64,000 nucleotides of DNA from an uncultured Methanosarcinales archaeon. GTDB taxonomy: Archaea > Nanobdellota > Nanobdellia > Woesearchaeales > CAXGTL01. The translations under genes and the position numbers were made by a program. The notes beneath the pieces were generated by a model that made no database searches, was not told the DNA's origin, and saw nothing but the letters and a program-made list of their open reading frames with translations. Below are positions 5,193 through 45,794 of the stretch, piece by piece. The stretch is from contig CAZHVK010000004.1 in assembly GCA_964535955.1 (NCBI GenBank), positions 70,222-134,221 of the forward strand, given 5' to 3'. Positions within the stretch are counted from its first letter, which is position 1. Each line of letters starts with the position of its first letter.

Positions 5193-5335
5193 ATTTGACA
5201 GTATACAGTAACTAGTATATAAATCTTACGTTTTGTAAACAAAATCTATGAAAATCTTTAAATAAAGCAAAATATCTCCACTATATAATGACAAAAAGAG
5301 TGATAGAATACAAAAATCAAGAAGGTGAAAACAAA

Positions 5336-6269: not shown

Positions 6270-6272
6270 AAA

Positions 6273-13813: not shown

Positions 13814-14908
13814 TTATTTCTTTCCTTTCTTCTTCACCAACAACTTAAGCTGGCTTTCAATAGAACTTATTTTAATCTTTAATTGGTCATAAGTTTCTTT
13901 TAATTCTTTTTTGATCACTTTATTTGTAACTTGTTTTAATGCTTTTTCAAGATTTTCTTTTTTAGTTATCAATGTTCTTAGTTTATCTTCAAGTTTCTTT
14001 TTCTCTTTCAGAATCCTTCTTTCTTTTTCAGCTTTTTCAAACACCAATCTTTCAATATGTTTAGCCTTATCTTTTACCTCAGACACACTTTCTTTTACTT
14101 TGTATTTAGAAATAAATTTCTTTTTTTGAACATTTCTAATGTTAACAAAATTAGGTGAAACAATCTCAATATTTGCTTTATTACATTCATCCAATACATG
14201 TTTATGTAATTGGCTTCTCATTCCTGTAATTTGTTTAACATCTTTTAAAAAACCATTTATTTCATATGTGACTGAAAAATCTCCAAATTCTGTAATACTT
14301 ACAAAAGCTTCTTCTAAACCAATATTTTGTGCAGCTTTTAACAATACTTTTTCAACCTTAGGTCTTGGTAAATCATAACCAAGACTTACTTTTGTTGAAA
14401 TCACAGCACCTAATTCAGAATAATTAGTCATTTTTCCTGACATTACCAGACTATTTGGAATTGTTACTAATGTCCTTTTTTGTGTTTGTACTTCAGTATG
14501 AAACAAGCTTAATTCTGTTACTTCTCCTAATACACCTTGAAACTCTACAATATCTCCAATTTTATATTGTTTTAATAATTTCACCAACACTCCTGACATA
14601 CCATTTGCTATTATTGATGAAGAAGAAAAAGCAACAAGTCCTCCTGCAACCAAAATAAATACTTGGATTATGCCTGACTGAATTCCAGGAATATTTAATA
14701 AGAAAAAAATAACAGCAATAATATAAATCATAACTTTAATTGTGTATTTACTAAATAATGCTTTATACCCATAATGTTTTCTAATGAAATTATATATTTT
14801 GTCTGTGATAAAATTAGCAAAAAAAGCAACAACAATGATCATAAGAATATTGATTATATTTGGCATATAACCTTCAATAGCTTTTAAAAAAGATTCCAAC
14901 CCAATCAT
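13814..14908 (-). CDS. mscS: small-conductance mechanosensitive channel
   Basis: 3 TM then YKIGDIVEFQGVLGEV...VTIPNS...NYS; coiled-coil tail; start chosen from TATA spacing (ORF open to 14929). Confidence 0.9.
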   Translation of the reverse strand: MIGLESFLKAIEGYMPNIINILMIIVVAFFANFITDKIYNFIRKHYGYKALFSKYTIKVMIYIIAVIFFLLNIPGIQSGIIQVFILVAGGLVAFSSSSIIANGMSGVLVKLLKQYKIGDIVEFQGVLGEVTELSLFHTEVQTQKRTLVTIPNSLVMSGKMTNYSELGAVISTKVSLGYDLPRPKVEKVLLKAAQNIGLEEAFVSITEFGDFSVTYEINGFLKDVKQITGMRSQLHKHVLDECNKANIEIVSPNFVNIRNVQKKKFISKYKVKESVSEVKDKAKHIERLVFEKAEKERRILKEKKKLEDKLRTLITKKENLEKALKQVTNKVIKKELKETYDQLKIKISSIESQLKLLVKKKGKK

Positions 14909-17313: not shown

Positions 17314-17505
17314 TTAACTTTCTTCACTCAATCCTTCATCAATATCATCTAATGTTGACCCTACATTACTAATATCTTCACCAAGTTCACCTACTTTTGC
17401 AGCAGCTTCTTCATCAGACTTAACATCACTTGTTTCACAACCAGTTGCTGTTAAAACTACTATCACTAACATCATTATTATTAATAAACAAATTATCTTC
17501 TTCAT
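17314..17505 (-). CDS. small lipoprotein
   Basis: Signal peptide with ATGC lipobox-like Cys; overlaps stop of upstream gene. Confidence 0.65.
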   Translation of the reverse strand: MKKIICLLIIMMLVIVVLTATGCETSDVKSDEEAAAKVGELGEDISNVGSTLDDIDEGLSEES

Positions 17506-20500
17506 TGTTGTTCACCTCCTTGATTTGTTTCACCTTCTCCTTCAGATTCTCCTTCACCTTCTGCTTCTCCTTCTACTGGCTGTGGTGCTTCACCTTCTCC
17601 TTCACTTTCTCCTTCAGATTCTCCTTCACCTTCGCCCCCATCACTATCATCTCCTATATCTGGTTCATCAATATGATCATGAGGCATATCAGGATAACCT
17701 AAACACACACAATTATCATTTACACAATCTGTGTTTTGATCACCACATTCTTGATGACAACCATCTGCACATTCACTTACTTCATCTTCATAATAACATT
17801 CACACCTGTTATTTATACAATCTGTTCTTGAAGATCCTGGACAATCAGCAGCACAATCATCACACCCTGGTCCAACAGCTTCAACATCTGATAAATGTCT
17901 GTCACATGCTTCTCTTGAAAGTGCACCAACTCTTACACAATCAGGATCCAGTTTAGATGTATCTGGTTCAGGCTGTCTAAAGTCTATACATTTTATATCA
18001 ACAACACATTTGTAACCTTGTGATTCATCATATATTGGTTCATCACCTGCATTTGGTCCATACTTTCTCTGACATTCTGCTTTTTCCCTTTTCCAATCTG
18101 CATCTGTAAAACAAGGTCCTTCATAATGTTTAGTGCATTTTTCTTCACATTCTTTACACTTAGGGTTTTCATAACCATCACCAGGCATACAAAAAGTATC
18201 ACCAACACATTCCATGATGCATTGTTCTTCTTTACTTATTGGCATTGGTTGAGGTCCTGGATAATATACTCCAGAATCTCCTTCTTTTTCAGACCTACAA
18301 GATCCAGGTCCTTTACTTTTACTAGGATCTTTACAATATATTAGTTCACCTTTTCCCATAACACAATTACCACTACCACTTCCTTCAGGACATTCTCCAT
18401 CCAATACTTTTGATGTTCCTTTAGGACATTTGTCATTAATATCAACAATACATGCTTGTGGCAAACCTTGGCAGCATTTTCTTGTGAACATTGGTCCATA
18501 TGGATCTGGTCCTGCTCCACCACCAAAATGTCTAGGTTCTGGTCCTTCATCAGGTCTACCAAAACATTTTGCTTCACATCTTTGACAATCAGGGTCAGGA
18601 TCATACATTGGTCTGCATGGTTTATCAACACATTCCATCATACATCTTTCTGCTTCATTTCTTGGCTCTGGTCCACCTCTTGGTCCGCCAGGCCCTCCTG
18701 GCCCACCATGCATTTCAAACATCTCTTTCATCTTACCTTCACAATATGGCATAAGATCTTCTGGTCCCATCATTCCAAATGCATAATTTGGATAAAAACA
18801 AGTCATATCCATTTTACCCATTGGTGTATCAGCAAATGCATATATTTTACATTTTTTATTTTCCACTCCAACAATTTGAACAGTTGTTTTTGGATCTTCA
18901 GGTGGATGGAAATCATATGCTTTACATATTCTTAGATGTTCATCAAATATTCTTCCATCATCAGGATAATATTCATCACCATATTCATCTCTAAGCTCAT
19001 CAAATTCCAGATCAAATTCAGGCATTTCTATTTCACCTAATTCTTCAGCAGGTGTAAACATTACATAAAGAATATCATTTAAAATAACTTCTTTAATATA
19101 TTTGATATCATGTTTTATAGATATTAAATCTTCTTTTGATATTTTTCCTATCCTTCCTCTTATATCTAGCATTAGTTCATTGACTTTCCCTTTTGCACCT
19201 TCAAACATTCCTGCAACTCTTTGGAATTTTTCAGCATTTGCATCATCGCCTTGTGATTCATGATACTTTGCTAAATCTTCTGCTTTTGCACTTAATTTAT
19301 CAAATTCTACATTTAATTGTTCTAATTTTAATGCAATATCCATCAATGTTCCAACATCAATATTTTCTCTAACATCTTCATATTCAATTTTGTTTTCATC
19401 TCCTCTTCTTACACAATCAACAAAACCAACACATCCTTTATCATCAAAATTAACAATTAGTTTTCCACCTTCATATTCACATTTTTTATATGCTTTTTCC
19501 GGAGGTCCTTGTTTATTGCAAAATTCTCTTTTTCCTTGTGTTCCTCCTTCACATTTGATAAATTCAGTACATCCTTCTGTATTATATTTGATAATTAATT
19601 TTCCACCACTTGGCTCACAATTTTCAGTTTCTGGATTTTTTGGTGGAGGGCTACATCTCGCACCTTGTTTTTGTATTGTATGAGGTTTTTCACATAATGT
19701 GATTGGACATCCTTGAGGATCAAAACCTTTTATAGGTGTACCACCATTTTCTCCACACCTTGTTTTTATTTCCCTTCTAAAGGAATTATCATCTTCTGCA
19801 CATGCTCCAAATCCTCTTCCTTCATCAAACTCTTCATGAACACAATCAACAAAATTACATCCTCTTTCATTTTTAATTATTGTTTTTCCACCTGTTTCTT
19901 CACACTTTCTTTTTACATCATCTAATTCTTCAGGAGGAGGACATTCTGTTTCCCTTTGTTCAAAAAATGCTCTTTCTTTCTCATTTTCTTTAGGTCCTTT
20001 TCTACCAAACCTACAATCAACAAACATACATCCTCTATCACCAGGAAGTATTTTAGGATCACCACCATCTTTACCGCATTGTTTTGCTTTTTCACTAACT
20101 TCATAATTAGAAGGACAGTTTTCTTTTTTGAATTTTTTTTTTGTTTCTTTATTTTCATCACATATTATCCTAAAATTACCATATTTATCCTCTTTACCAA
20201 AACATCCAGGAGGCATATCTGGTTTTTTATCTTTCATTTCTTGTCTTTTTTGTTCATCTAATTCTCTCATTTCATCTTCAAATTTTAATCTTGATTTTTC
20301 ACTATCTTCTTCCCATTGTCTTCGTTCTTCTTCCCATTGTTTGTCTTTTTCTTCATCATGTCTTTGCCATTCATCTTCTTTTCTTTTCCAATCATATTCT
20401 CTTCTTTCATCTTCTGGTTTCCATCTTTCGTCTTCTCTCCATTCATCTGTTCTAGTTCTTTCACTTTCTTGTTCCCACCTTCTTTGGTCATCCTCTCTAT

Positions 20501-20975
20501 GATCATCTACATAATTATCATCTCTATGATCATCTACATAATGGTCATCTCTATGATCATCTACATAATTATCATCTCTATGATCATCTACATAATTATC
20601 ATCTCTATGATCATCTACATAATTATCATCTCTATGATCATCTACATAATGGTCATCTCTATGGTCATCTACGTAATTATCATCTCTATGATCATCTACG
20701 TAATTATCGTCTCTATGATCATCTACATAATGATCATCTTGTTGAAAATCATCTTTAGGTTCATCATGCATTACTGGCTCTTGATGCATTGGTTCAGAAC
20801 TTTGTTGTGGCTCAGGAGCCGGAGCAGTTTCACCACCAGCATCAACATTACCTTCATCAACTTGTCTTCCAGTGATTATATTTCCACTAAAGAAATCATC
20901 AAAAAACCCAGCGCTTGCAACACTCGCAAACAGAACAATTATCAAAAACACACTTAGAAATTTATTTTTATTCAT
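17502..20975 (-). CDS. large exported Cys-rich protein with Asp/His nonapeptide repeats and acidic GE tail
   Basis: AGGTGG SD before ATG 20975; signal peptide; 9x DD(H/N)YVDDHR; repeated C-x3-GG...GC-x3-C modules. Confidence 0.8.
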   Translation of the reverse strand: MNKNKFLSVFLIIVLFASVASAGFFDDFFSGNIITGRQVDEGNVDAGGETAPAPEPQQSSEPMHQEPVMHDEPKDDFQQDDHYVDDHRDDNYVDDHRDDNYVDDHRDDHYVDDHRDDNYVDDHRDDNYVDDHRDDNYVDDHRDDHYVDDHRDDNYVDDHREDDQRRWEQESERTRTDEWREDERWKPEDERREYDWKRKEDEWQRHDEEKDKQWEEERRQWEEDSEKSRLKFEDEMRELDEQKRQEMKDKKPDMPPGCFGKEDKYGNFRIICDENKETKKKFKKENCPSNYEVSEKAKQCGKDGGDPKILPGDRGCMFVDCRFGRKGPKENEKERAFFEQRETECPPPEELDDVKRKCEETGGKTIIKNERGCNFVDCVHEEFDEGRGFGACAEDDNSFRREIKTRCGENGGTPIKGFDPQGCPITLCEKPHTIQKQGARCSPPPKNPETENCEPSGGKLIIKYNTEGCTEFIKCEGGTQGKREFCNKQGPPEKAYKKCEYEGGKLIVNFDDKGCVGFVDCVRRGDENKIEYEDVRENIDVGTLMDIALKLEQLNVEFDKLSAKAEDLAKYHESQGDDANAEKFQRVAGMFEGAKGKVNELMLDIRGRIGKISKEDLISIKHDIKYIKEVILNDILYVMFTPAEELGEIEMPEFDLEFDELRDEYGDEYYPDDGRIFDEHLRICKAYDFHPPEDPKTTVQIVGVENKKCKIYAFADTPMGKMDMTCFYPNYAFGMMGPEDLMPYCEGKMKEMFEMHGGPGGPGGPRGGPEPRNEAERCMMECVDKPCRPMYDPDPDCQRCEAKCFGRPDEGPEPRHFGGGAGPDPYGPMFTRKCCQGLPQACIVDINDKCPKGTSKVLDGECPEGSGSGNCVMGKGELIYCKDPSKSKGPGSCRSEKEGDSGVYYPGPQPMPISKEEQCIMECVGDTFCMPGDGYENPKCKECEEKCTKHYEGPCFTDADWKREKAECQRKYGPNAGDEPIYDESQGYKCVVDIKCIDFRQPEPDTSKLDPDCVRVGALSREACDRHLSDVEAVGPGCDDCAADCPGSSRTDCINNRCECYYEDEVSECADGCHQECGDQNTDCVNDNCVCLGYPDMPHDHIDEPDIGDDSDGGEGEGESEGESEGEGEAPQPVEGEAEGEGESEGEGETNQGGEQQ
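20496..20738 (-). repeat. in-frame 27-bp tandem repeat, 9 copies
   Basis: Unit GATGAT(A/C)ATTATGTAGATGATCATAGA with a few synonymous changes; no unique spacers. Confidence 0.95.
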
Positions 20976-21104
20976 TAATACCACCTTCTTTTTTATTAAT
21001 AAAACAATGATTAGTATAATAATTACTAATCTCACTTATTTAGAAGGATGATATATATAAAGTTAACGTTAAAATTATAAGAATATATACCATAAAAATA
21101 AAAA

Positions 21105-24443: not shown

Positions 24444-26756
24444 TTAAATAGAAACATACTTATGCACAACTTCTTTGATATAATCTAGATCATGCAATCC
24501 ATTAACAAATCTAGAAGGGACCTTTTCAAATCCATTATATGCACCGCTTATTGCACAAGCCATTGCACCAATTGAATCAGAATCACCAGAATGATTGATT
24601 GAAGTTATCAATGTTTTTTCAAAATCATCAGGACTGTGTAAAAAACTATACAAAGCACATGGTATTGTTCCAAGTGTACCTTTTCCTTTTCTTTTTTTGA
24701 CATCACGTGTTAAAGGCAGCTGCTCCAATGCTTCTGCTGGGTCTTGATCAATCATTTGGTTAAGGTATTGAAGTTCTGTTGCAAGTTCTAGTGATATTGG
24801 CTTTATTTTTTCAATTATTTCATCTAAATATTTTTGTTTATCAAATCCTGGTTTAAGATCATATGCTTTTTGTATTGCATAACCAATTGCCAGAGAACCT
24901 GCAATTGCTAGATTATTTTTGTGAGTTATTTTAGCTTGCTTGATAAGATCTTCTTCTAAATCCTTTGCTTGGGCAGATACAGGAGCAACCCTCATTGCAG
25001 CACCGCAACCAGTTGAATCATTTCCAGTGAATCTCCAATTAACACCTGCATACAATTTTCTAAAAGCCATTAGTGCCATGTATCCATAACCAATGTTTTT
25101 ATCAAAATCATCATCTATTTGTTTTCCAATTTCTCCAAATCTTTTTGATATGTCATATGGATCTATATATCCTCTGTCCACAACAGAATTTATTATTTCT
25201 AGAGCAAGTTCTCCATCATCACTATAACTTCCTGCAGGCATTTGATATCCTCTTCTGTGAAGATTATCAACATAGTCATCAACAGTACCGAATATTCTTT
25301 TTATTTTTTCAATAGGTAGTCCTTCAATAGGCAATCCCATTGCATCTCCAATTATTGTTCCATAGATACTTCCTTTAACTTTATCCTTATTATTGTTTAA
25401 CCTTGGTTTTACTTGTTTTTCCAACTTTTCAGAATCAACCATTGATTCAACAAAATTTAAAATATCTTTATCTCTTTCTTTTGAAAAATCATAAGACTTC
25501 ACAATTTTAGGATTTAATCTAGACATAAGTCTTATTGCTTCTTCTCTTACACCAGGATCTTTGTCACTAAAATAATTTAATATTCTTTTTTGACCAGCTT
25601 CATCAATATTTTTCATTCTTCCAATCATATTGATTGCAAGCGACCTTATGTATGGATCTTCTGAATCAAGTCCTTGAGATATTTCTGTTTTATACTCATT
25701 TAGGTTTGTCTCATGCAACAAAAGCGCAGCATATGTCCATTTATCTCTATCATCTTCTGATAAATATTCTAATGCAAGTTTACTTACTTTTTCATGTTTA
25801 AACCTTGATAACGCTCTTCCTGTAGTCCATCTGACAAGCATATCAGAATCATCTAATCTTTTGACAAGATAATCAATTGATTTAGGATTTTGTATATAAC
25901 CAAGTGTTTGAGCAGCATATTTTCTTATTCTTCCGCTGTTATCATTTAATAATTTATGAAGTAATATCATTGTTCTTCTGATTGGTGTGTGTTTTATTTT
26001 TTTCATAGCTTTTATTTTTTTGTCTCTTGAATCCCCATTTATCATCTCTAGTGTTTTTACATAATCCTCTACTTCATCAGATAAAGGCATTAATTCATCT
26101 GTTGGAACAAAAACAGCATATGATATTTTTTCTTTTTTAAGATGTTCTATAACTTTTCCATTTAACAAGTGTCTAAGACCTAAAATTTGAAACTTTTTTT
26201 CTGGAAACTTAGTGATTCCAAAATCTCCATATACAAAATTATAATCTCTTTGATCATTTATTTTTTGGAATTCTTCTACAATTCTTTCATTTTCCTCAGT
26301 CATTTGTAGATAATTCTCAGGCAGTTTATTTCTTATTTCTCTCAATTTTTCAACTAATTTATGATCATCATTAAATACACATATAACATTTCTATTACCT
26401 AGTTGTTTTTTAATATCATGTATATAACTTTCAGAAACATTAAAATATTTATAGATCACTTTTCCATTAAACCCTTCCATAAGTATTATATTTTCATGTT
26501 CAACACAGTCTAAGAGCACTTTTTCAATATTCTCAGCAAACCATTCAATATTTTGAGGATGATAATCACCTATTAATATTACATCAGGATCATCAGAAGT
26601 ATGATCATACAATACAAAACCTTCTTGTTCCATATTTTTATTTATATTATCTAGATAAGAATCTTCTACAATAGCAGTTAAATTTCGAGACTCATGACTC
26701 TTTTTTAATCTGTCTAATGATTCTCTTGAATTAAGTTCTTCTGGTCTTTTTTTCAT
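24444..26756 (-). CDS. three-part fusion: possible TraB/EreA/ChaN-like N-domain + HEAT repeats + ADP-ribosylglycohydrolase
   Basis: C-term IGDAMGLPIEG, YSDDG, GCGAAMRVAP, ITH, GDSDSIGA; central VRW..GRAL / VREEAI HEAT repeats; N-term LIGDYH..MEG..LGLRH (N-domain call weak). Confidence 0.85.
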   Translation of the reverse strand: MKKRPEELNSRESLDRLKKSHESRNLTAIVEDSYLDNINKNMEQEGFVLYDHTSDDPDVILIGDYHPQNIEWFAENIEKVLLDCVEHENIILMEGFNGKVIYKYFNVSESYIHDIKKQLGNRNVICVFNDDHKLVEKLREIRNKLPENYLQMTEENERIVEEFQKINDQRDYNFVYGDFGITKFPEKKFQILGLRHLLNGKVIEHLKKEKISYAVFVPTDELMPLSDEVEDYVKTLEMINGDSRDKKIKAMKKIKHTPIRRTMILLHKLLNDNSGRIRKYAAQTLGYIQNPKSIDYLVKRLDDSDMLVRWTTGRALSRFKHEKVSKLALEYLSEDDRDKWTYAALLLHETNLNEYKTEISQGLDSEDPYIRSLAINMIGRMKNIDEAGQKRILNYFSDKDPGVREEAIRLMSRLNPKIVKSYDFSKERDKDILNFVESMVDSEKLEKQVKPRLNNNKDKVKGSIYGTIIGDAMGLPIEGLPIEKIKRIFGTVDDYVDNLHRRGYQMPAGSYSDDGELALEIINSVVDRGYIDPYDISKRFGEIGKQIDDDFDKNIGYGYMALMAFRKLYAGVNWRFTGNDSTGCGAAMRVAPVSAQAKDLEEDLIKQAKITHKNNLAIAGSLAIGYAIQKAYDLKPGFDKQKYLDEIIEKIKPISLELATELQYLNQMIDQDPAEALEQLPLTRDVKKRKGKGTLGTIPCALYSFLHSPDDFEKTLITSINHSGDSDSIGAMACAISGAYNGFEKVPSRFVNGLHDLDYIKEVVHKYVSI

Positions 26757-26913: not shown

Positions 26914-29900
26914 CTAAGAAGCTGCTTTCAGCATTTTTATTGCTTCTTCCCTTGTATGTATCAGGCCTTTAGCTTGCCAAGATTTAACCATGTTCATGTA
27001 CTTGCCTACTTCTGGTCCTGGCTTGACCTCTTTTATACTCATTATGTCACCACCTGTCAAGAATGGTTTTGCTTTAGGAGCTGGTTTAAGACTGAAATCA
27101 CCCAATGGTTTGGGCTTTAATTTAACAATATTATTGCCAAGATCCACCACATCTCCTCCTTCTAGACCAGATAAATGGGCATAAACACTCATCCTAGTCT
27201 CAGGACTTACATGTTCAGGTACACTCTTTCCTGGAATACATCTTCCCCACCCATCACCTTCAACCAAAACAACCTTTACTTTGCCTAACTGTCCTGTTTT
27301 TTTAAGTAATTCAATTACTTCATCTCTTCTTTCCATACTAGCTACAATCACACCTTTTGATAGGTCTGTTTGTTCAAATGGATGATGTCCTTCTATTCTT
27401 CCAAAAGCAGTATAATCATTTGCTCTTGCAGCACCACTTTCACCAAGTGTACTAGCATAATATTCATACCTTGATTCCGGTGTGTCTAATATTTCTTCTA
27501 GTTTTTCTCCTTGTTTTATTCTTTGTTTAATTTGTTCTTCAACTGGGTTTTTTTGTTTATTTGGTTTTGATTCTACATACTGTCTATACTTTGGATCATT
27601 TAATATGTCTTCTAATTTTTCACCTTGTGATAGTCTTTTGTTCATTTGTTCTAAAAATTGATTTTTTGGTGATTTTGGATTTGTTTCTAAATAATATCTA
27701 TACATATCTTGTTCAGTGAATGAACCTTTTTTTATCTGTTCTAAAGAATAACCTTTTTGTAATTTTCTTTCTACCATATCAATTACCATATTTTCACTAA
27801 GAAACTCTTTTGCATTTTCAGCATCCATAACACCATCTATTTTTTTACCAAAAGAGGTTCCTCCTTTTTGTAAAGCTATATTTTTTTGCACACCATTTTT
27901 AAGATCGCCAGGTAAATAAACACTTCCATCATCCAGAATTCTGGGCAGATAAAAAAATTCTACATCACCATATTGGTACGATGGATCAAGCATAGTAAAC
28001 ACATCTCCTTTAGATCCTTTTAAAGCATCTCTTGGACTTGGAATATCACGAGGTTTTAAAGAACCTGTTTCCAAGATTCTTTCAAGATTTTCAAAACTAG
28101 TTGAATGTGAATAACCTAAACTTTCTACTACTGCTTTTGACTGCCCTCTAAATTCCTGCATCAATGCTTGTATTTCTTCTGGTTTGACACCTGTTCTTGC
28201 AGCTACTTGTTGTATTTGTTGTTGTACTAATACTTCTCTGTTGTGCACAGAATTTTTCATTGCATTTTCCCTATACACTCTGAACATTGCTTCATCAAAA
28301 GCAGCATTATCTTCTTGTCTTAGTTTTAATAGATCATGTTCTTCTTTTATCACACTTTTTCTATCTGTATCTTGAGTCAATGTGTGTTCTATTTTTTGTC
28401 TCATTGATGCAACACTTTCTTCAGAAGCTTTTGCAGTGCTAAACCCTTCCATGTCAGACTGAAGTACTACACTAAATTCTCCCTTTTTTGTCACAAACAA
28501 TATTGTTTCCAAACCATTTTCAGATTTTATCACATATCCTGGACAACCATTTTTAACACTCCTGAACTCAATATTAGGATCATTAAGATTTATCTCTTTT
28601 CCTTGATAAACAATCACAGGACTACCATCACTGCCTTTTAAAACAGAAAGATCATCATCAAGATTTTCAAATGATATAAGTGCTGCTTGATCAGCTTTAT
28701 ATTCTCCTTGTAATAATACTGCTGCTTTTTCTGAAAATCTATCTTTTCCAATCTTTAGCTCTTGTCTTATCTTATCATCTAATGCATCTGCCACACCTGC
28801 ATCTTCTGTAACTGCATCATTCACTTTTTGTTCCAAGCTTGCATCAACTTGTTCTCCTTTTAGATAGAATTCAGTTTGAATTTCTTTTGCAGTCATCAAT
28901 CTTTTTAGGTCATCTGTTGTAGGTTCAGACATTTCAGCATTAAAAAGTGCTTGCAAAGTCATTGGTTCATCTATTGTTTTTCCATCTAATGCTGCTATTG
29001 CTTGTTCAAATTTATACTGTGCATCTGCTGCTTTGAACATTTGTTCCATGCCTTGTTTGACTTCAGTAATATCATGAAACCTTGGACTATTAAGATCAAC
29101 ATTTTTTGCAATAAAGAATGAATTGCCATTAGGATCCATGACTTTCCATCCACCTTCAAGTACTTCCATGTTTTTTAGAGCTAATTTACCTGCATTAAAT
29201 GTAGTGTCAGCTGCAAGAACATTCAATGTTTCACCATCAATAACAGTAAGTTTTGAAGTAGCTTCTAGACCTTGTTCAAGAAGATAATCAGCATCAGGCC
29301 CACCATCCAGAGCCATAACAAGTAATTCTAATGATGGATGAATATATCCTGCACCTTCTTCTATTACTTCGACACCAACTTCTGCTAATACTTTTGTAAC
29401 AACTCCTCCAGCATGTCCTAATTTTGCTTTAGCCAGAGCAAGTGTTTTTACCATCTTAGCACCAGTTGTTGTTGATGACAACAAAGCACCACCACCTTTT
29501 GCAATCAAACCATATCCTGCTAATGCAGCAGGGTTTGCAATTGCAAAAGCAGTTGAACCAATGCTGTATTGAGCAAATTCATCACCTACTAAGAATGCAT
29601 CTTTGAATTTTGATCCAGACCCTTCACCAGTTATACTTACATAAAGTTCTTTTGCTTGAGCAGCGATCTTTTCATCAGTTGAAGCCATTAATTGTTTTGA
29701 TATTACTGATGCTGCTGCTTGAAAATTATCTTGTGATCTGTATTTGATAGCAGCTTGAAGTTTTTTTGCTTCTATTTCCTCAACACTTGGTAATTCTTTG
29801 TTCCATCCTTGTGTTTGTATTGCAACTTGCATCATTGGATTATTTTCCAAAGATTCAGAAACAGCTTGTGTATACAATATTGTTTCTCTTGTTCTTGGGT

Positions 29901-32439
29901 CAGCGATTCTTAGTTCAGAATTAATTCCAGTAATTCCTTCTCTTTCAAAAATATTAACTGTTTCTCCTGTATCAATGTCAAAACTCATCCCATTATTTTT
30001 AATCAAATGGATAGCTGTAGGAATATCAGGTGCAATTCCTTTTTGTATAAGTTCAGAAGCAAAATTAAGCCCTTGTGACAAAACAACTTTATCATACTCA
30101 ACAATGTCTAATGCACTAAACTGTTCTTGTACAACATCTACTCCAAAATCAGCAATATTTCCAGGATTTAAAGCTGCAAATGCATTTGCTATGGAGATGT
30201 CTTTTGAAAAATCTTTATAAGGTTTTTTTAATCTTTGTTCCCATTGTTGATATCCTACTTCATTATTTTTTAATGCAACCCCAATATAATTTAATGAATC
30301 TAATTTTGTGATTGTTTTTTTAGCTTGTTTTCCTTCAGTGCTAATAGGATCATGTTTGATAATATCATTAAGATATTGTCTTGCAATATCAGTATTTCCA
30401 TGCCTGGAATAATATGCTGCAAGTTCTAATGAAGCAATACTAGCTTGTCTACTTCCTTTATGTTGAGAAGCTACTGATATTAATTCTTTTCTTCCTTTAG
30501 ACAAGTCACCTTTTGCAAAATATGCATGCGCTTTCATCAGATCCTGCATATTCTCTCCTAAAAACAATTGTGATTTTTTTGCACTTAACAAGTTTACAGA
30601 AGTTCCTTGTTTTAATTCTAGTTTTCTTATTCTGTTTTTAAGTTCTTTATAAAATTTCTCTCTTCCTTCAAGATGAAAAATAGCTTTTTCTTCCTGACTA
30701 TCTAGTTCAGTTAACTTTTTCTTTAACAACTTTAGTTCTTTTTCTTCAGATTCAGTCAGCCTGCTCTCAATATTATTGCCATACCTTATACCAAATATAT
30801 GATTAACACCAAAATATGCTTGTCTATCACCTAATTCTACCATTATGTCTTTATCAATTGCTAAAAATTTATCAGGATCAATATCAATATCTGCTAACAA
30901 TGCAAGGCTTTGTTTATCAAACTCTAGTTCTGGTTTGCCATCCTTGTTGACAACAGTTGTTTTGATTCTCATTGTGCCAGATACAAATCCTTGTTCTGCT
31001 GATAAGTCACCTGTCTTTACTTTTTTTGTTACTTCTGCAACAGCTCCATCCTGATCACTTTTTATATGGATTGACTCATCATCTTTGCTTACAATTATCT
31101 TACTATTTGTTCTATCCTGTAATCCTTTGCAATTACTATGTGGAGTATCAACTTCTACTTTTCCTACTGTTGCAACACCTTGTATCTCTCCTGCATCAAT
31201 GATCATTACCAATGATTCACCAGGAACCACACTCTTTTTTAGTTTAGCTGCCTTTTCTCCAACCACATTTATATCAAAATAAAGATTAGCAGCTGCAGAA
31301 TCGTGCTTGACCTTTATATCATTCTTTTTATCAGAATATTTTCCATCCTTTGACAATAATTTTGCTGTTCTAAGATAATTGCCTCCTCCAAACTCTACTT
31401 CAAACTCTCCTGAAAACAAATGCTGTCTGTCATCACTTGCTTCACTGAATATTTCACCAAACTCTGTTTCAGCATCTTTTGCACTCAACTTTTTCCAGCT
31501 ACCATCTTGGTTAAATTCAATTTGTGAAACTCCTTTAATCCTACCATGTAATAAGTCAGTTAATGAAGAACTCTTATCCAATAATTCAACACTACTAAGT
31601 TTTTCATTTTCTAGCTTAGCTACAAACTTACCTCTTATCTCTTTCATGCCCATTACAACTTCTGCATTGTCAGCACTTATCTCTTCAGAACTTATCATAA
31701 GTGTTCCTTCAAAATTAATAAACTCACCTAATTCAAACTCTCCTTCAGCATAGCCTTTGACAATTGTCTTAAGTTCTTCTATCTTCATATTTGTACCAGG
31801 AGCAATCTCAGAAACAACAAGTCCTGTCTTAGGGTCGACAACAGCACCGCCTGTGTTAAATGTGATAGAGCCGTCTTTTTCTAATACCATTTGTTCTCCT
31901 TGAACACCCATATTTCTTGGTTCAAACACAAACTCATTGTCTTCAGAATCATAACTTATCTTTGTCGCACCGTATGGAATCTTTCCTTGTTCTTCATCAC
32001 CTATTGTTAAGATAAGTTCACTGGTCTTTTCTTGATCACCATCATCATACTTAAACTTTATTTTAGCAGGATCATCTGAAAACTTCATACCTTTTACAAC
32101 ATTAAATTCAATCTCTTCATTACCAATCAAGTTTTGCATGTGCTTGTTAAATGCTTCAGCATTTTCACTTATGTCAACTTTAGAAAAATACTTATTGATA
32201 GATTCTCTATTTTCTTCAACATCTAGATTTTCCAGGTCACTAAAAAACTTTTTAGCACATTCAAGACACTCTTCAACATTCTTGGGATCTTTGAAAAATT
32301 CTATCTGTTTTTCATGAGGATACGCTTCAAACCAGCTTATATCTTTTTCTTCAGCATTAGCCTCATCACCATTTTCTCCAATAACATATAGGCTACATAA
32401 AACAATTACAATCATTAAAAAATACATTATTTTCTTCAT
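26914..32439 (-). CDS. giant exported protein, putative polymorphic toxin (stalk, TPR-like segment, hydrophobic region, ART-like domain, CCA-enzyme-like tail)
   Basis: Signal peptide; TPR-like LELAAYYSRHGNTDIARQYL; Ala/Gly-rich hydrophobic region; YSHSTSFENLERILETGSLKP...YGDVEF...RIEGHH; terminal PFLTGGDIM..KPGPEVGK...TREEAI. Confidence 0.7.
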   Translation of the reverse strand: MKKIMYFLMIVIVLCSLYVIGENGDEANAEEKDISWFEAYPHEKQIEFFKDPKNVEECLECAKKFFSDLENLDVEENRESINKYFSKVDISENAEAFNKHMQNLIGNEEIEFNVVKGMKFSDDPAKIKFKYDDGDQEKTSELILTIGDEEQGKIPYGATKISYDSEDNEFVFEPRNMGVQGEQMVLEKDGSITFNTGGAVVDPKTGLVVSEIAPGTNMKIEELKTIVKGYAEGEFELGEFINFEGTLMISSEEISADNAEVVMGMKEIRGKFVAKLENEKLSSVELLDKSSSLTDLLHGRIKGVSQIEFNQDGSWKKLSAKDAETEFGEIFSEASDDRQHLFSGEFEVEFGGGNYLRTAKLLSKDGKYSDKKNDIKVKHDSAAANLYFDINVVGEKAAKLKKSVVPGESLVMIIDAGEIQGVATVGKVEVDTPHSNCKGLQDRTNSKIIVSKDDESIHIKSDQDGAVAEVTKKVKTGDLSAEQGFVSGTMRIKTTVVNKDGKPELEFDKQSLALLADIDIDPDKFLAIDKDIMVELGDRQAYFGVNHIFGIRYGNNIESRLTESEEKELKLLKKKLTELDSQEEKAIFHLEGREKFYKELKNRIRKLELKQGTSVNLLSAKKSQLFLGENMQDLMKAHAYFAKGDLSKGRKELISVASQHKGSRQASIASLELAAYYSRHGNTDIARQYLNDIIKHDPISTEGKQAKKTITKLDSLNYIGVALKNNEVGYQQWEQRLKKPYKDFSKDISIANAFAALNPGNIADFGVDVVQEQFSALDIVEYDKVVLSQGLNFASELIQKGIAPDIPTAIHLIKNNGMSFDIDTGETVNIFEREGITGINSELRIADPRTRETILYTQAVSESLENNPMMQVAIQTQGWNKELPSVEEIEAKKLQAAIKYRSQDNFQAAASVISKQLMASTDEKIAAQAKELYVSITGEGSGSKFKDAFLVGDEFAQYSIGSTAFAIANPAALAGYGLIAKGGGALLSSTTTGAKMVKTLALAKAKLGHAGGVVTKVLAEVGVEVIEEGAGYIHPSLELLVMALDGGPDADYLLEQGLEATSKLTVIDGETLNVLAADTTFNAGKLALKNMEVLEGGWKVMDPNGNSFFIAKNVDLNSPRFHDITEVKQGMEQMFKAADAQYKFEQAIAALDGKTIDEPMTLQALFNAEMSEPTTDDLKRLMTAKEIQTEFYLKGEQVDASLEQKVNDAVTEDAGVADALDDKIRQELKIGKDRFSEKAAVLLQGEYKADQAALISFENLDDDLSVLKGSDGSPVIVYQGKEINLNDPNIEFRSVKNGCPGYVIKSENGLETILFVTKKGEFSVVLQSDMEGFSTAKASEESVASMRQKIEHTLTQDTDRKSVIKEEHDLLKLRQEDNAAFDEAMFRVYRENAMKNSVHNREVLVQQQIQQVAARTGVKPEEIQALMQEFRGQSKAVVESLGYSHSTSFENLERILETGSLKPRDIPSPRDALKGSKGDVFTMLDPSYQYGDVEFFYLPRILDDGSVYLPGDLKNGVQKNIALQKGGTSFGKKIDGVMDAENAKEFLSENMVIDMVERKLQKGYSLEQIKKGSFTEQDMYRYYLETNPKSPKNQFLEQMNKRLSQGEKLEDILNDPKYRQYVESKPNKQKNPVEEQIKQRIKQGEKLEEILDTPESRYEYYASTLGESGAARANDYTAFGRIEGHHPFEQTDLSKGVIVASMERRDEVIELLKKTGQLGKVKVVLVEGDGWGRCIPGKSVPEHVSPETRMSVYAHLSGLEGGDVVDLGNNIVKLKPKPLGDFSLKPAPKAKPFLTGGDIMSIKEVKPGPEVGKYMNMVKSWQAKGLIHTREEAIKMLKAAS

Positions 32440-32474: not shown

Positions 32475-33509
32475 TCATCTCTCTTCAATACTCAACCTTA
32501 ACTTTTTCTCAACTTCATTCACACCATCACTTATTGTGATTGGTATTTCATAATTACCTACATCACCTGAAACAGGTGTAAACATTATTTTTCCATTCAT
32601 TCCAATATCAAACAACACTGTCTCATCTTCATATGTCAGTCTTTGATTTTCAGGATCATGACCACCAACATCCAAATAAAACAATTCACTAACATAAGCT
32701 GTCTGGTCACTTATATCATTAACAATAGGAATCTTATTTTCTACAAAACTATTTTCAACAGCAAAATTAAAAACAAAAACCTTATCATTAACATTAGAAT
32801 CAAGATCATATATTGAATAGACTAATGTGCTTTCATCATATGACATAAGACTAACATCAACACCGTGTGATGATAATTCTCCTAGATTAATTTTATCATT
32901 ATTCTTTGTTTTTTCTAGGATAGTATTTTTAACATCAAGAACATAACCAAGCCTTATAGGTAATACTTTGCTAAACTCAGACAACTCAGTCTTTTTGCTT
33001 CCTTCTATAATGGTGATTGGATAATTAATATTTACTTCAACATTATCCTCATTTACTCTGGTCTTAACATCTATTTCTCCATATTCAAAATCAAAATATT
33101 CTCTAAACAATTCAAAATCACTTAAGCACCCTTTGAATGAATCTGCAATAAACTTGTTTAGTTCATCTTGAATTTGTTTTTTTTCAGAAACAGGATCTAT
33201 ATTATTTTCATCATGATAATTAAGAATATATTTTTCAGTGATCAGCATTCCTGTGCTTGGAAAATAATCAGGATCATATACAAATCCTCCATTTTTTGCC
33301 AAAAGATATATTCCTGGTGCACTAACTTTTTCAACACAAGACTCTGCAAAATATTTAACAGAACTTTTGTCTGAAACTTTTACCACAAATTGTTGTTCTC
33401 CTTGTTGTTCTGTATACTTTGACACTAAAAAAAACAAACATGTTATTAGAATTACCAATACAATACCAATTATTATAAATACAGTCAATTGCCCTCTTTT
33501 ATTACTCAT
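32475..33509 (-). CDS. class III (pilin-like) signal peptide protein with C-terminal Ig/cadherin-like domain
   Basis: KRG/QLTVFIIIG prepilin-type motif; NKIP..DQT...DPENQRLTY...FTP...ITISDG. Confidence 0.75.
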   Translation of the reverse strand: MSNKRGQLTVFIIIGIVLVILITCLFFLVSKYTEQQGEQQFVVKVSDKSSVKYFAESCVEKVSAPGIYLLAKNGGFVYDPDYFPSTGMLITEKYILNYHDENNIDPVSEKKQIQDELNKFIADSFKGCLSDFELFREYFDFEYGEIDVKTRVNEDNVEVNINYPITIIEGSKKTELSEFSKVLPIRLGYVLDVKNTILEKTKNNDKINLGELSSHGVDVSLMSYDESTLVYSIYDLDSNVNDKVFVFNFAVENSFVENKIPIVNDISDQTAYVSELFYLDVGGHDPENQRLTYEDETVLFDIGMNGKIMFTPVSGDVGNYEIPITISDGVNEVEKKLRLSIEER

Positions 33510-33591
33510 AATACTATATTTATCCAACATATATATATAAATCTTACTTATTTATGTGTTGGTGCAACCACAAAGCTTACTTATTTTGACA

Positions 33592-38083: not shown

Positions 38084-39283
38084 TCACTCAAGAAAACAAT
38101 ACAGATTATAATCTTTCTCAATAAGATCGCAAACTTTTATCAATCTTATGTCAAGACCATCTTCTTTAGCTCTTATAGCTTCTTCATAAGAACCATCTTC
38201 ACCATGTGAAAAAGAAAAAGCAATAACAACACCTTTTGTCTTACCTTTTCTTCTCATCGCTGTTTCAAACTTATCAACCCATTCTCTTCCAACTTTTTCT
38301 ACTTTTTTTATAGAGATAGCGACTTGTGGATCATTTATAGGATACATCCCATCAATTCCTTTATCTCTTGTTGCTGGTGACCTTTGTGCACCTAAAATAT
38401 CGCAGATATAATGCTCAAATGCAATTGGTTTTAATTTTTCTAATTTCCTAATACTTAATTTTTCTAATTCATTTATGTCTGGTTTAAGATTAATACTTTC
38501 AACATATGAAACATTTCCATGCTTTTCCATTCTTTCCATTATGTCTTTACATAATATAGGAGAAATATCAATTCCAATATACTTTCTACCTAATGATTGC
38601 GCAATCTCTAGTGTCTGACCATTGCCGCACATTGGATCAACCACATTATCATTTTCATCAGTGCTTAATAATATTAATAATTCAACAAGATTTCTAGGTT
38701 TTCTTCTTTTATAACATTTGTATAATTGTTTATCTTGTTTATCAGGATCAATTTCCCACACATCACCATTTATTTCAATACCTTGTTTATTATTATATTC
38801 TTCAATAATCTCTTTATTAAATGTGATTAGTTTTTTATCACTTGGTTTTCTTATCTTAACATATCTTAGAATTACATCATATTTTTTATCAATATCTTTT
38901 TCTCTTGGTCTTCCTGATTTTTTCTTAACACTCCACACAATTCTGTTCCTGCACTTATCTCTTCCATTAAAAATATCATCCATCTTCATCTTAAGATAAT
39001 CAACATAATCAGGATTACAATGCAGATACATTGTGCCACCAGGTTTTAAAACCCTATGACATTGTTCTAATCTGAGTTCTACCCATGACAGATAATGCCT
39101 TATGCCGCCTTTTTTCATTTCTTCAAACATTTCTAATGTGTATTCATCATACTCTATTCCTTTTTTTCTTTTTACAGGAATATCAGCATATATAATATCA
39201 ATAATATTACTTTCAAAACCATCTCTAAAAACATCATAACAATCTCCACAGCATATTAAATTGTCTTCTAAACTGATTTGCAT
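38084..39283 (-). CDS. N6/N4 DNA methyltransferase fused to Mrr-like endonuclease, with degenerate motifs
   Basis: IIYADIPV, RVLKPGG, RNRIVW, VVDPMCGNGQT, IGIDIS; C-term FEHYIC..DKGIDG..ISIKK..KGVVIAFSFS. Confidence 0.85.
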   Translation of the reverse strand: MQISLEDNLICCGDCYDVFRDGFESNIIDIIYADIPVKRKKGIEYDEYTLEMFEEMKKGGIRHYLSWVELRLEQCHRVLKPGGTMYLHCNPDYVDYLKMKMDDIFNGRDKCRNRIVWSVKKKSGRPREKDIDKKYDVILRYVKIRKPSDKKLITFNKEIIEEYNNKQGIEINGDVWEIDPDKQDKQLYKCYKRRKPRNLVELLILLSTDENDNVVDPMCGNGQTLEIAQSLGRKYIGIDISPILCKDIMERMEKHGNVSYVESINLKPDINELEKLSIRKLEKLKPIAFEHYICDILGAQRSPATRDKGIDGMYPINDPQVAISIKKVEKVGREWVDKFETAMRRKGKTKGVVIAFSFSHGEDGSYEEAIRAKEDGLDIRLIKVCDLIEKDYNLYCFLE

Positions 39284-43197: not shown

Positions 43198-43470
43198 CTA
43201 ATTAAATATCCATATCCTTCTACCCTTAACCTTGCTCCACACATAGATATTTCTTATTCTTTTATCTTTCCTATCAAATGTACTTCCAATAGTAATGTCA
43301 AAATTTGTAATAGGAGCACCTGTTCTTCTTTTTCTCACATCTATCTCACTAAACTCTCTCCATTCTTTACCAAAGTCTATAGGTGCATCATCAACTACAT
43401 TTCCGCACCTAGTACAATAGACTATGGTTGATTCAACTTTCAATATTCCATTACATTCTCGACATTTCAT
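43198..43470 (-). CDS. stand-alone TFB/TFIIB N-terminal module (zinc ribbon + B-reader)
   Basis: KCREC...YCTRCGNVVDD..IDFGKEWREF...RRTGAP; ATGA overlap with upstream gene. Confidence 0.88.
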   Translation of the reverse strand: MKCRECNGILKVESTIVYCTRCGNVVDDAPIDFGKEWREFSEIDVRKRRTGAPITNFDITIGSTFDRKDKRIRNIYVWSKVKGRRIWIFN

Positions 43471-45773
43471 TTTATAGTTGTGAGGGCTTTTTCGATCTTT
43501 TCAACATCTACATCTGCTGCTTCACTTATATCTTTCATGTCATACTTAACATTGTTCTTTTCATAGATCCTACACATAGCAACAGCTACCAAGATCTTCA
43601 TGTTCTTGTCTCTTAACCTTCCTTGTTTGATAAATTCTCCTAACTTCAGCATAAGTTCTTCTTTTTCTTTTATGCTTAGGTTAAGCATTGCAGACACTAT
43701 TTTTGTCTGTCTTAGCAAGATTCCAATGCACCTGTTAGCACGGTCTTCCCAAGTACCTATCTTGTACTTGGTTCCACTATATGCTGTTCTAAGATCCTCC
43801 AGTGTAATACCAAACTCACCGTATGGCATAAAATGTGTGCCTATTGTTACACCACGTTCATGAATGTCTGTACCAAGTCCTCTGTCATATTCTGTGTATT
43901 TTTCACTTCCAAATATTGCTCCAAGACCAGCTCTTCCACTATCTTTTCTTGAAACCTTAGAGAGTTGCATCCTTAACTTCCTTTCTATAGGAGTGCTTGA
44001 ACGATTCTGCCATCTTCTTAGTCTGTAGAATTTCCCACTACTAGGCATTTTTCTGCAAGCATGGAGTCCACTCAAAACACCAACTCTTGCACCAGCCATA
44101 ACAGGATCCACATCTTGCGGAACTTCATTACCAATCTCTGCATCAATCACAGCTTTTTCACCTTTTTCAGTATCAACAGCAACAAGAGATGTATATTGTG
44201 ACATCAGATGATACTTTAATGCAATCTTTGTAATCTTTGCTTCTAATTCTTTGTTCAGACCTCTTGCATGGTGTGCAATATAATCTTCAGACATTAGTTT
44301 AGCAATATGTTTTCTAGCCCATAACATTGATATTGCACTTCCTTGTTTTTTCTTACTAAACTTGATTTTGATCTTTTTCTCAAATCCATCTGCTTTTATC
44401 ACTAAGATGCCATCTTTTTTTGTTTTACCATACACAACAACAGGTTTATTACTAAACAGATCATTTACCATTTTCGGATATATTTCTGCACCCGCCATAT
44501 TAATTTGTATATTTTTTAGCAATGGATTAGCAATCATGCTATAAAATTTCTTAGCAGCTTGTTTTGCATCATCATCAGTTGTTACATACAATATTTCCCC
44601 TCTTCCTTCTTCAGCCATTTTTTCAGTAAGATACCTGTTAGAAGAATAACCTACCCCAAACACAAAAAACCTTGCATGTTTTGACCTTGCTTTGATTTCT
44701 TCAATCACTTCAAACTCATTTCCAATTGCACAGTCAGACATAAAACAAACAATCCTTAATCTGTCTTTATCATATGGTAATCCTAATGCTTCTCTTACAG
44801 CAGGAACCATTTGTGTTCCACCATTACCATATCTTTGCACTAAAAATTGTAGTGCTTGTTCAACATTTTCTTCTGTATTCTTTCTTGGAGCTTCAAATAC
44901 TTTTATCATATCATTTGAAAAAGATATCAATTGAAATGTATCATCTTTATTCATATTCTTAATACAATGTTTCATTGTTTCTTTTGCTTTTTCAATAGGC
45001 CATCCACTCATTGAACCAGAATCATCTATCACAAAGATCATTTCTTTTGGCAAAACTTTTTCTTTATCAATTTTCTCAGGAGGATGTATAACAGCCATAA
45101 AAAATTTTTCTTTACCAGCATTTTGTGTAATCACAGCATCTGATATTTCTTTTTCAGTTACATTATATGTTAAGATGAAATCCTTGTTTCTTCTTGCTTT
45201 TTTAACAAGGATCTTATCTTCTTTTACATTTATCTTATGAGACTTTGACTTGATCTTTGTAGGTTTTTTACCAGGATTTAATACTATCTCAAAATCAGCA
45301 ACACATTCTCTTTTAAGACTAAACAATGTAGTGACTTTTTTAGTATCCTCAACACCATGAGGCACAAACTTAGGCATCATTGTCAATGGATGTACATAAG
45401 TATAAGTATTATCTTGTCTTTTTATTTGTTGCAGAAACTTGATTGTTACTTTAATTTCTTGCTTTGGCTGCATATTTGCAATGTTTTGCGTAAACAGGTT
45501 AGGCCTTTCTTGTTCTATCAAGCTTGCCACTTTTCCTTGTTCTTGAGCTTTTTCAAATATTTTTCTAGCTTCTTTTCTTTCTTTAATCTGTGACACAATT
45601 TTTCTTTTTCCTATTTCTATAACACTTTCATATACAGCAGAATTCTCTGGTAATGGAAACTGATATACAACATTTGTAGCTTGTTCTAGATCATTTCCAA
45701 AACATTGTTCTACTTCTACTTCAGCTATATGATTCAATATTTGTGTTTTTATATTCATTTGTTTTAGTTTCAT
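43467..45773 (-). CDS. VIT + vWA domain protein with C-terminal TFB-derived segments
   Basis: VIT: YQFPLPENSAV..IKERKEARKIFEKA..ASLIEQERPNLFT; MIDAS DDSGSMSG, GGT, SD; LWAR, SQYTSLVAVD; TFB-like tail from ~44039; GGTGG SD before ATG 45773. Confidence 0.88.
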   Translation of the reverse strand: MKLKQMNIKTQILNHIAEVEVEQCFGNDLEQATNVVYQFPLPENSAVYESVIEIGKRKIVSQIKERKEARKIFEKAQEQGKVASLIEQERPNLFTQNIANMQPKQEIKVTIKFLQQIKRQDNTYTYVHPLTMMPKFVPHGVEDTKKVTTLFSLKRECVADFEIVLNPGKKPTKIKSKSHKINVKEDKILVKKARRNKDFILTYNVTEKEISDAVITQNAGKEKFFMAVIHPPEKIDKEKVLPKEMIFVIDDSGSMSGWPIEKAKETMKHCIKNMNKDDTFQLISFSNDMIKVFEAPRKNTEENVEQALQFLVQRYGNGGTQMVPAVREALGLPYDKDRLRIVCFMSDCAIGNEFEVIEEIKARSKHARFFVFGVGYSSNRYLTEKMAEEGRGEILYVTTDDDAKQAAKKFYSMIANPLLKNIQINMAGAEIYPKMVNDLFSNKPVVVYGKTKKDGILVIKADGFEKKIKIKFSKKKQGSAISMLWARKHIAKLMSEDYIAHHARGLNKELEAKITKIALKYHLMSQYTSLVAVDTEKGEKAVIDAEIGNEVPQDVDPVMAGARVGVLSGLHACRKMPSSGKFYRLRRWQNRSSTPIERKLRMQLSKVSRKDSGRAGLGAIFGSEKYTEYDRGLGTDIHERGVTIGTHFMPYGEFGITLEDLRTAYSGTKYKIGTWEDRANRCIGILLRQTKIVSAMLNLSIKEKEELMLKLGEFIKQGRLRDKNMKILVAVAMCRIYEKNNVKYDMKDISEAADVDVEKIEKALTTIK

Positions 45774-45794
45774 ATTAACCACCTTTGTTAGTTC

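Follow-up and report, generated by a model that had tools for sequence, protein, structure and literature searches.

A class II CCA-adding enzyme tail tip on a giant, toxin-like protein of a Woesearchaeota-type archaeon, encoded next to a HEAT-fused ADP-ribosylglycohydrolase

The 64,000-nt stretch of contig CAZHVK010000004.1 analysed here (the window) carries on its minus strand a giant open reading frame (ORF) of 1841 amino acids (aa; 26914..32439), the final 51 residues and stop codon of which occupy positions 26914-27069. Translated on that strand, this segment reads KPFLTGGDIMSIKEVKPGPEVGKYMNMVKSWQAKGLIHTREEAIKMLKAAS followed by the stop (KPFLTGG...KMLKAAS), and it is this C-terminal tail (residues 1791-1841; 26917..27069, minus strand) that is our main subject. 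Read on the plus strand, 26914-27069 gives a meaningless peptide, placing the feature on the minus strand. Judging by the archaeal genes of the window (a transcription termination factor FttA with a KH domain, an archaeal-type prolyl-tRNA synthetase and a proteasome subunit) and by relatives in Woesearchaeota metagenome-assembled genomes (MAGs), the host is a Woesearchaeota-type (DPANN) archaeon. Archaea normally use class I CCA-adding enzymes. An earlier note on this DNA had likened the tail to that of class II CCA-adding enzymes and poly(A) polymerases from bacteria, and had proposed that it steers an ADP-ribosyltransferase (ART)-like domain to tRNA in a toxin.

Sequence comparison confirmed that the tail is genuinely homologous to the three-helix tip with which the class II (bacterial-type) CCA-adding enzyme tail domain ends. 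Of 1.84 billion representative proteins, eight were matched at E<=1e-3 when the C-terminal 461 aa served as phmmer query; half of these (P0003-P0006) are related over the entire C-terminal region. The other half (P0007-P0010) are CCA-type proteins aligned to the tail alone, with E-values of 9.3e-5 to 6.7e-4 and alignments spanning about residues 398-459 of the 461-residue query. In Pfam, these four proved to be class II nucleotidyltransferase-type proteins or pieces thereof, featuring a PolyA_pol head, an RNA-binding neck and an HD domain (PF01743 being present in P0007 and P0009), and all of them carry PF13735 above its cutoff. The comparison with tRNA nucleotidyltransferase profiles suggested in the earlier note gave a largely positive outcome: the tail matched positions 414-462 of 466 in the actinobacterial CCA model TIGR02692 of NCBIfam (E 1.8e-4) and positions 105-145 of 149 in PF13735 (tRNA_NucTran2_2; E 3.6e-4). 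Counting against the homology, its PF13735 score of 21 bits lies under the gathering score of 27.

The same relationship emerged from the PDB. As a single sequence, the tail matched residues 451-501 of 3wfo_A with an E-value of 5.5e-4 and 20 of 51 positions identical (counted from the alignment), and also 9ns4_A and 9ns2_A; 3wfo was deposited as 'Poly A polymerase' and is, we assume, the Aquifex aeolicus CC-adding enzyme. A three-member family profile retrieved 3wfo_A at 2.1e-7, and a 62-position profile of four family tails retrieved it at 2.3e-10, along with 9ns4_A (9.8e-7) and 9ns2_A (5e-3); the same columns of the tail profile weakly matched the last ~35 residues of chains of the human enzyme TRNT1 (E 0.58-0.77). 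The top PDB row for the single sequence was a different one, the iota-carbonic anhydrase 7c5x_A (E 1.9e-4), which we regard as probably spurious: its score adds up three repeats, none of which by itself does better than an E of 8 and which fall for the most part on the linker ahead of the tail (residues 26-92 of the last 111 aa; window 26917-27249, minus strand), and it was gone with family profiles.

Could the resemblance be accidental, or owed to the composition of a short, helical peptide rich in lysine and glutamate, and so be devoid of evolutionary meaning? Such an explanation would draw on the sub-threshold Pfam score, on the mere ~50 residues that the segment spans and on a word-indexed search in which the last 111 aa found no match among longer proteins at E<=0.01; a second such search, with residues 1380-1841 against proteins of near length, likewise gave no match. 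We nevertheless consider chance extremely improbable, given that four independent CCA-type proteins were recovered below 1e-3 from a library of 1.84e9 and that the 3wfo_A signal grew from 5.5e-4 to 2.3e-10 with the family profile. In addition, hhalign joined the family tails to the four CCA-type proteins with 98.5% probability over 52 columns (40% identity), and the real tail scored 37-41 bits against these proteins as compared to 8.9 bits for the best of 200 shuffles, a control to which the library-wide phmmer E-values are to be preferred as the fairer measure, because the four targets had been preselected as best matches. Finally, the match fell consistently at one place, the extreme C-terminus of the enzymes, be it in Pfam, NCBIfam or the PDB. 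The likeness pointed out in the earlier note was thus borne out by phmmer, PDB profiles and hhalign.

What the archaeal protein shares with these enzymes is the same ~50-residue motif (L-x-G ... P-G-P-x-V-G-K ... T-x-E-E-A-I) that makes up the tail tip of class II CCA-, CC- and A-adding enzymes and poly(A) polymerases (the C-terminal 40 positions of PF13735; 3wfo_A, 9ns4_A and 9ns2_A), in the same extreme C-terminal position and with three predicted helices. In contrast to the class II enzymes, it lacks the remainder. The whole 1841-aa protein gave no match to the Pol-beta head PF01743 at E<=1, and its 461 C-terminal residues gave none at E<=10; the neck PF12627 went unmatched by Pfam in both, and the correspondence is confined to the last ~50 residues. 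With head, neck and body absent, the giant protein falls outside the family of CCA-adding enzymes and bears the tail tip alone. Moreover, unlike the cytoplasmic enzymes of tRNA maturation, it presents this tip on a predicted secreted archaeal protein of 1841 aa.

Within the modelled C-terminal region, AlphaFold was confident for the tail alone, predicting helices at residues 1796-1803, 1809-1823 and 1830-1839 with a predicted local distance difference test (pLDDT) score of 81-90. The motif aligned without gaps across eight tails (four from the family, four CCA-type), and Gly1796, Gly1808, Gly1812 and Ala1833 were invariant in all eight. Of the glycines, Gly1796 starts the first predicted helix, Gly1808 sits just ahead of the second and Gly1812 falls in its first turn. 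Class II enzymes hold the tRNA elbow in place with their tail domain (PMC3925840). In human TRNT1, according to a preprint, Gly390/His391 of helix alpha19 touch the elbow, and three residues at the N-terminal end of alpha20 (Gly401, Lys402 and Gly405) stack on the G19:C56 pair, a contact that is called very similar to that of the Aquifex CC-adding enzyme (10.64898/2026.03.02.709036). These descriptions, as far as the two sources go, agree with the earlier statement that the class II tail is implicated in tRNA contact. By the predicted model, the conserved glycines of the window tail would occupy helix starts corresponding to the elbow contacts of TRNT1. The tail is 33-46% identical to the CCA-type tails and 41-56% to those of its own family; this near-equal similarity, together with the invariant glycines, would follow more readily from retention of the ancestral contact. 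It is plausible, by analogy with the enzymes, that the tail aims the C-terminal tip of the giant protein at tRNA.

The protein that carries the tail (26914..32439, minus strand) appears to be a very large protein, secreted or surface-borne, that combines TPR-like repeats (at about residues 629-709) with a C-terminal tip. Its sole hydrophobic segment in a Kyte-Doolittle scan comprises residues 1-25 (32365..32439, minus strand), a putative signal peptide or membrane anchor, and the same pattern recurs in P0003, P0004, P0005 and P0011. The last of these, a protein of 1619 aa, was the sole relative found with residues 1-1250 and shares the N-terminal trunk (residues 72-562; 30754..32226, minus strand) at 30% identity (E 5e-55). 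In place of the window's tip, the C-terminal end of P0011 is a RelA_SpoT domain (PF04607, E 2.7e-14). Toxins of the RelA/SpoT type are described as either targeting the CCA ends of tRNA or producing (pp)pApp. Conversely, the conserved C-terminal region of the window protein, from residue ~1225 onward, is common to P0003 (1436 aa), P0004 (3014 aa), P0005 (1877 aa; ending before the tail) and P0006 (a 109-aa piece), and P0003, P0004 and P0005 bear the shared tip on bodies of differing length. This region opens with a pre-tip part (residues about 1225-1439; 28123..28767, minus strand), shared with P0003, P0004 and P0005, that is beta-rich and then runs into long helices, the strands being modelled at pLDDT 50-66 and the final helices at values of up to 87.

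Polymorphic toxins are typified by a common body onto which different enzymatic tips have been exchanged. The sequence evidence, in which one relative (P0011) documents the swap, therefore suggests a polymorphic-toxin-like protein with an exchangeable C-terminal tip. The proposal of a toxin has gained support in this respect, through the signal-like N-terminal segment, the RelA_SpoT-tipped relative and the hydrolase gene that adjoins the giant gene in all three loci (see below). When the tip was compared by tblastn with plasmids, no match was found; against phages, the one match (E 0.06), to a hypothetical protein of 2025 aa from a Vibrio jumbo phage, was taken as chance. Further upstream in the protein, a glycine/alanine-rich, mildly hydrophobic stretch extends over residues about 975-1060 (window about 29260-29520, minus strand); it stays below the transmembrane threshold of the hydropathy scan and could be a membrane-interacting or translocation segment. 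By visual inspection, P0003-P0005 and P0011 contain comparable stretches.

A search for related loci with the single protein returned none, and the closer alignment A2 retrieved two (L001 and L002), both from Woesearchaeota MAGs and encoding P0003- and P0004-type proteins. In the window and in these two loci, the giant gene is part of a conserved three-gene cassette. Next downstream, on the same strand, lies in each case a gene of 760-770 aa, which in the window (24444..26756, minus strand; 770 aa) encodes an N-terminal domain (residues 1-245) of no PDB or Pfam match, HEAT repeats at about 265-418 (HEAT_2, E 3.6e-21) and a full-length ADP-ribosylglycohydrolase (ARH) domain at 462-749 (PF03747, E 1.5e-53). 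Its orthologues in L001 and L002 are 44-50% identical (PF03747, E 8.8e-53 and 8.2e-55), and the acidic motifs of the hydrolase domain, which we take to be the metal site, are invariant in the three-locus alignment. The protein has no hydrophobic or transmembrane segment in the hydropathy scan. Among solved structures, its hydrolase domain came nearest to MJ1187 (6.8e-40), followed by ARH3 (about 1e-18), DraG (1e-14) and the Tri1-type 6dre (9e-9). We propose the HEAT-ARH protein as a candidate enzymatic immunity protein. A second, stand-alone ARH (295 aa; PF03747, E 6.6e-75) is encoded elsewhere in the window, at 46402-47289 on the plus strand.

On the upstream side, all three loci share a gene that in the window (32475..33530, minus strand) encodes 351 aa and in L001 and L002 occupies 6132-6854 and 1029-2105 (BLASTP E 1e-22 and 3e-17). 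The products begin with KRGQ or KKGQ and continue into a strongly hydrophobic stretch, which in the window protein follows KRGQ as the one N-terminal segment (10-42) scored by the hydropathy scan; we presume this to be an archaeal pilin-type signal. No Pfam family was found for the window protein, and its gene may hint at an export or display route. Around the related cassettes, L002 encodes a Macro-domain protein (14059-14577, minus strand; PF01661, E 1.8e-41), that is, another protein that handles ADP-ribose, and L001 carries a HEPN-domain gene just downstream (13998-14717, plus strand) and a DDE transposase upstream (4632-5660, minus strand).

The cassette is not compositionally foreign, the guanine-plus-cytosine content being about 0.30 throughout the window. 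A promoter and terminator scan was uninformative, as it applied a bacterial consensus to an archaeon and found fewer sites than in shuffled sequence, and neither tRNAs nor Rfam families were detected in the window. Its other genes include a fusion of a DNA methylase with an Mrr-type restriction endonuclease domain (38084-39283, minus strand), a Fic/DOC family protein (58428-59345, minus strand), a protein with VIT and von Willebrand A domains (43467-45875, minus strand) and two large ORFs without a Pfam family at E<=0.001 (17502-21035, minus strand, 1177 aa; 2131-4212, plus strand, 693 aa).

Taken together, the homology of the tail and the neighbour predicted to remove ADP-ribose suggest the tip to be a toxin against tRNA. 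The reading that we favour, tentatively and as a possibility somewhat short of even, has the tail dock on the tRNA elbow, a core of a new enzyme family modify the tRNA, probably with ADP-ribose, and the HEAT-ARH protein protect the producer. The tip would first reach the cytoplasm of a neighbouring cell or of a host cell. There, the tail would anchor it on the elbow, the corner of D-loop and T-loop, so that the core, a ~350-aa domain outside all described families, could modify the tRNA, most probably by ADP-ribosylation dependent on nicotinamide adenine dinucleotide (NAD). In the producer, the cytoplasmic HEAT-ARH protein would remove the modification and perhaps also bind the tip. Of these elements, the tail homology, the order of the domains, the relative with a swapped tip, the conserved three-gene cassette and the intact hydrolase domain are established, while delivery, tRNA binding, ART chemistry and an immunity function are proposed.

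The candidate catalytic domain in this proposal, possibly an ART, is the conserved core that precedes the tail (residues about 1440-1790; 27070..28122, minus strand), as delimited by alignments with P0003, P0004 and P0005. Its motifs read H1446-x-T, S-x-RDA-x-KG, (G)DVF, YGD, LPGDL-x-NG-x-QK, SFG-x-K, GRIE-x-H (with E1683) and LGK-x-KV, of which H1446-x-T, Y-G-D and GRIE-x-H are invariant in the core alignments. The window copy alone contains within the core an insertion of ~76 residues (about 1590-1665; 27445..27672, minus strand), composed of two similar units QGEKLE[DE]IL..P..R and absent from P0003 and P0004. Relatives of the core were limited to P0003-P0006 among the 1.84 billion representatives, none else appearing in phmmer at E<=1e-3, and a core that has no detectable relatives beyond four proteins is a candidate new enzyme family. 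Two described folds were considered and set aside: a 2H phosphoesterase calls for two H-x-[ST] motifs, and no second one is conserved at GRIE-x-H, and a Pol-beta nucleotidyltransferase head requires a G-S ... D-x-D pattern, which the core lacks. The succession of H-x-T, I-L-x-x-G and G-D-V-F calls to mind the ARTs of the H-Y-E clade, and the invariant H1446-x-T, Y-G-D and GRIE-x-H (E1683) might conceivably hold an ART catalytic triad (H-Y-E or R-S-E), a reading based on motif resemblance.

Several results weigh against the favoured reading, most of them concerning this core. It matched no ART family in Pfam (E<=10) or PADLOC (E<=1), and sequence and profile searches of the PDB with the core produced no ART at E<=10. 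A 76-column profile of the segment from H-x-T to YGD gave dynein and kinase rows at E 0.2-0.5 in the PDB and none in Pfam, and a 1877-position profile including full-length P0005 gave no matches. Two AlphaFold models, built from alignment A1 (617 aa) and from alignment A4 (the P0003 tip, free of the insertion; 352 aa), left the core at a pLDDT below 50, the means over the models being 50.7 and 50.4. In three Foldseek searches (two of the PDB, one of BFVD), nothing reached E<=0.001, the best values being 0.04, 0.53 and 0.01; the top rows (a ribosomal protein, PCH-2 and unnamed viral proteins; template modelling scores of 0.05-0.25) were treated as noise, and BFVD rows annotated as 'PARP catalytic domain' (rank 26, E 1.1) and as a phage 'ADP-ribosyltransferase' (rank 40, E 1.7) were not significant. 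A first Atlas search returned unnamed viral clusters at 0.75 only, and with the P0003 core the named clusters DarT/PARP (0.77), OspC (0.76) and the rifampin-ART Arr (0.75) were among six rows, all Atlas scores remaining below 0.8, a level that shuffled proteins reach a third of the time. The genomic context, too, comes from three loci. Beyond the core, the tail is not consistently basic: lysine plus arginine versus aspartate plus glutamate number 9/5 in the window and 6/9 in P0004.

The ART-like domain of the earlier interpretation was accordingly detected by no profile, fold or structure search, and this part of that interpretation has so far found no support, unlike the tail homology, the tRNA-elbow element and the toxin framing. 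Because the core gives no ART signal, the case for ADP-ribosylation rests mainly on the conserved hydrolase neighbour. One may instead suppose that the core is a tRNA-acting enzyme of a new family other than an ART (a nuclease, a transferase or another modifier) that is likewise aimed by the tail, with the HEAT-ARH protein neutralising it by binding or being unrelated to it. The absence of an ART signal from profile and fold tests fits this, as does the RelA/SpoT tip of P0011, by which the scaffold is seen to carry non-ART enzymes; HEAT-only immunity proteins exist (PMC3482391), and the stand-alone gene at 46402-47289 indicates that an ARH gene in this window is not necessarily paired with a toxin. 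Such a core would leave it hard to account for a HEAT-ARH gene directly downstream in three of three loci, with its full-length hydrolase domain and invariant acidic motifs, and the Atlas leads, at noise level, name NAD-using ART-fold families. We therefore judge a non-ART core unlikely.

A further possibility concerns the target. The tail may be a genuine CCA-tip homologue that has been reused away from tRNA, as a folding cap, as a handle for the HEAT repeats or as a protein-recognition surface, on a tip that ADP-ribosylates proteins and is countered by the hydrolase as in Tre1-Tri1. Both ARG (ADP-ribosylglycohydrolase) and HEAT proteins occur among the immunity proteins described for polymorphic toxin systems, ARG being the sole enzymatic one, and in the passages of PMC3482391 that treat it, ARG immunity is described strictly with protein-modifying R-S-E ARTs, a point that also speaks against a tRNA target. 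The same holds for the report, in the part of PMC11833690 that bears on it, that ARH-like enzymes failed to reverse RNA ADP-ribosylation at the 2'-OH or at guanine bases; according to the same source, ARH-like hydrolases do reverse the modification at RNA phosphate ends. Also in line with a protein target, the hydrolase matches the DraG (1e-21) and Tri1 (4e-14) models, the HEAT repeats and conserved N-domain of the hydrolase protein suggest a binding role, the net charge of the tail varies (being acidic in P0004), and bacterial ARTs usually hold their specificity within the catalytic domain (PMC12340436). Set against this are the window tail's similarity to CCA-type tails, about as close as to its own family, the invariance of the glycines at elbow positions, and a hydrolase that lies nearer to ARH3 than to DraG or 6dre among solved structures. 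On balance, protein-directed reuse of the tail strikes us as doubtful, albeit the chief competitor to the tRNA-directed toxin.

RNA- or tRNA-directed ART toxins are already known in bacteria, among them RhsP2 (PMC12340436), Tre-Thr and Tre23, with CmdT as an example from a defence system, and the general idea is therefore not new. Like RhsP2, Tre23 and Tre-Thr, the window system would place its activity in the C-terminal tip of a large secreted protein, has a putatively protective gene directly downstream and is proposed to act on a structured RNA or tRNA. These toxins, as their descriptions have it, are bacterial, delivered by type VI secretion systems or Rhs proteins and of demonstrated ART fold, whereas the window protein is archaeal and its ART fold is only proposed. 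The known RNA-directed ARTs read their RNA through the catalytic domain, in the case of RhsP2 by a basic surface beside the active site (PMC12340436); unlike such toxins, the window tip has a separate, seemingly borrowed tRNA-reading module appended. A further difference lies in the antidote: the 2'-OH modification made by RhsP2 is reversed by PARG-type macrodomains and not by ARH enzymes, as far as PMC11833690 covers this, and the neighbour in the window is an ARH.

In that respect the cassette resembles Tre1-Tri1 and the Imm-ARG class, for which enzymatic immunity through ADP-ribose removal is established (PMC3482391), in that an intact ARH domain is encoded by the gene next after the toxin-like tip. 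The corresponding toxins are R-S-E ARTs that act on proteins (PMC3482391), and unlike Tri1, the window hydrolase is fused to HEAT repeats and a 245-aa domain and is nearer in sequence to MJ1187 and ARH3. Precedent for the transfer of a tRNA-reading module from CCA-adding enzymes comes from the beta subunit of bacterial GlyRS, in which a CCA-enzyme body and tail is reused for contact with the tRNA arm and elbow (10.1101/2023.05.29.542759). There, the module is described as related to the body and tail of the archaeal (class I) enzymes and serves a housekeeping synthetase (10.1101/2023.05.29.542759), in contrast to the class II tail tip that stands alone on the toxin-like tip of the window protein.

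New in the present case are the archaeal (DPANN) setting, the core without a detectable family, the HEAT-ARH fusion and, above all, the separate tRNA-reading module. No description of a fusion between a CCA-enzyme tail and a toxin was found in narrow literature searches, in which the Pfam name tRNA_NucTran2_2 was absent from papers, and a narrow search for giant surface proteins or toxins of Woesearchaeota retrieved nothing relevant among the papers listed. In its fullest form, the scenario would be that of a contact-delivered DPANN toxin in which a new enzyme family, targeted by a 50-residue tRNA-elbow reader acquired from bacterial-type CCA-adding enzymes, ADP-ribosylates tRNA in general and a dedicated, HEAT-fused, ARH3-like hydrolase erases the mark, making up a reversible archaeal toxin-immunity pair; with all of these elements combined, we regard it as rather doubtful.

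Should the tail indeed direct the toxin-like tip to tRNA, then the part of CCA-adding enzymes that reads the elbow would prove to be a portable module of about 50 residues, and a prokaryotic toxin would have gained its target via an added recognition domain rather than via its catalytic domain, which is not typical of bacterial ARTs according to PMC12340436. The core is a candidate new enzyme family, and those who study it would have both a hypothesis at hand and a natural antidote. For the DPANN archaea, which depend on other cells, the system would then offer a testable handle on how they act on the translation machinery of their neighbours.

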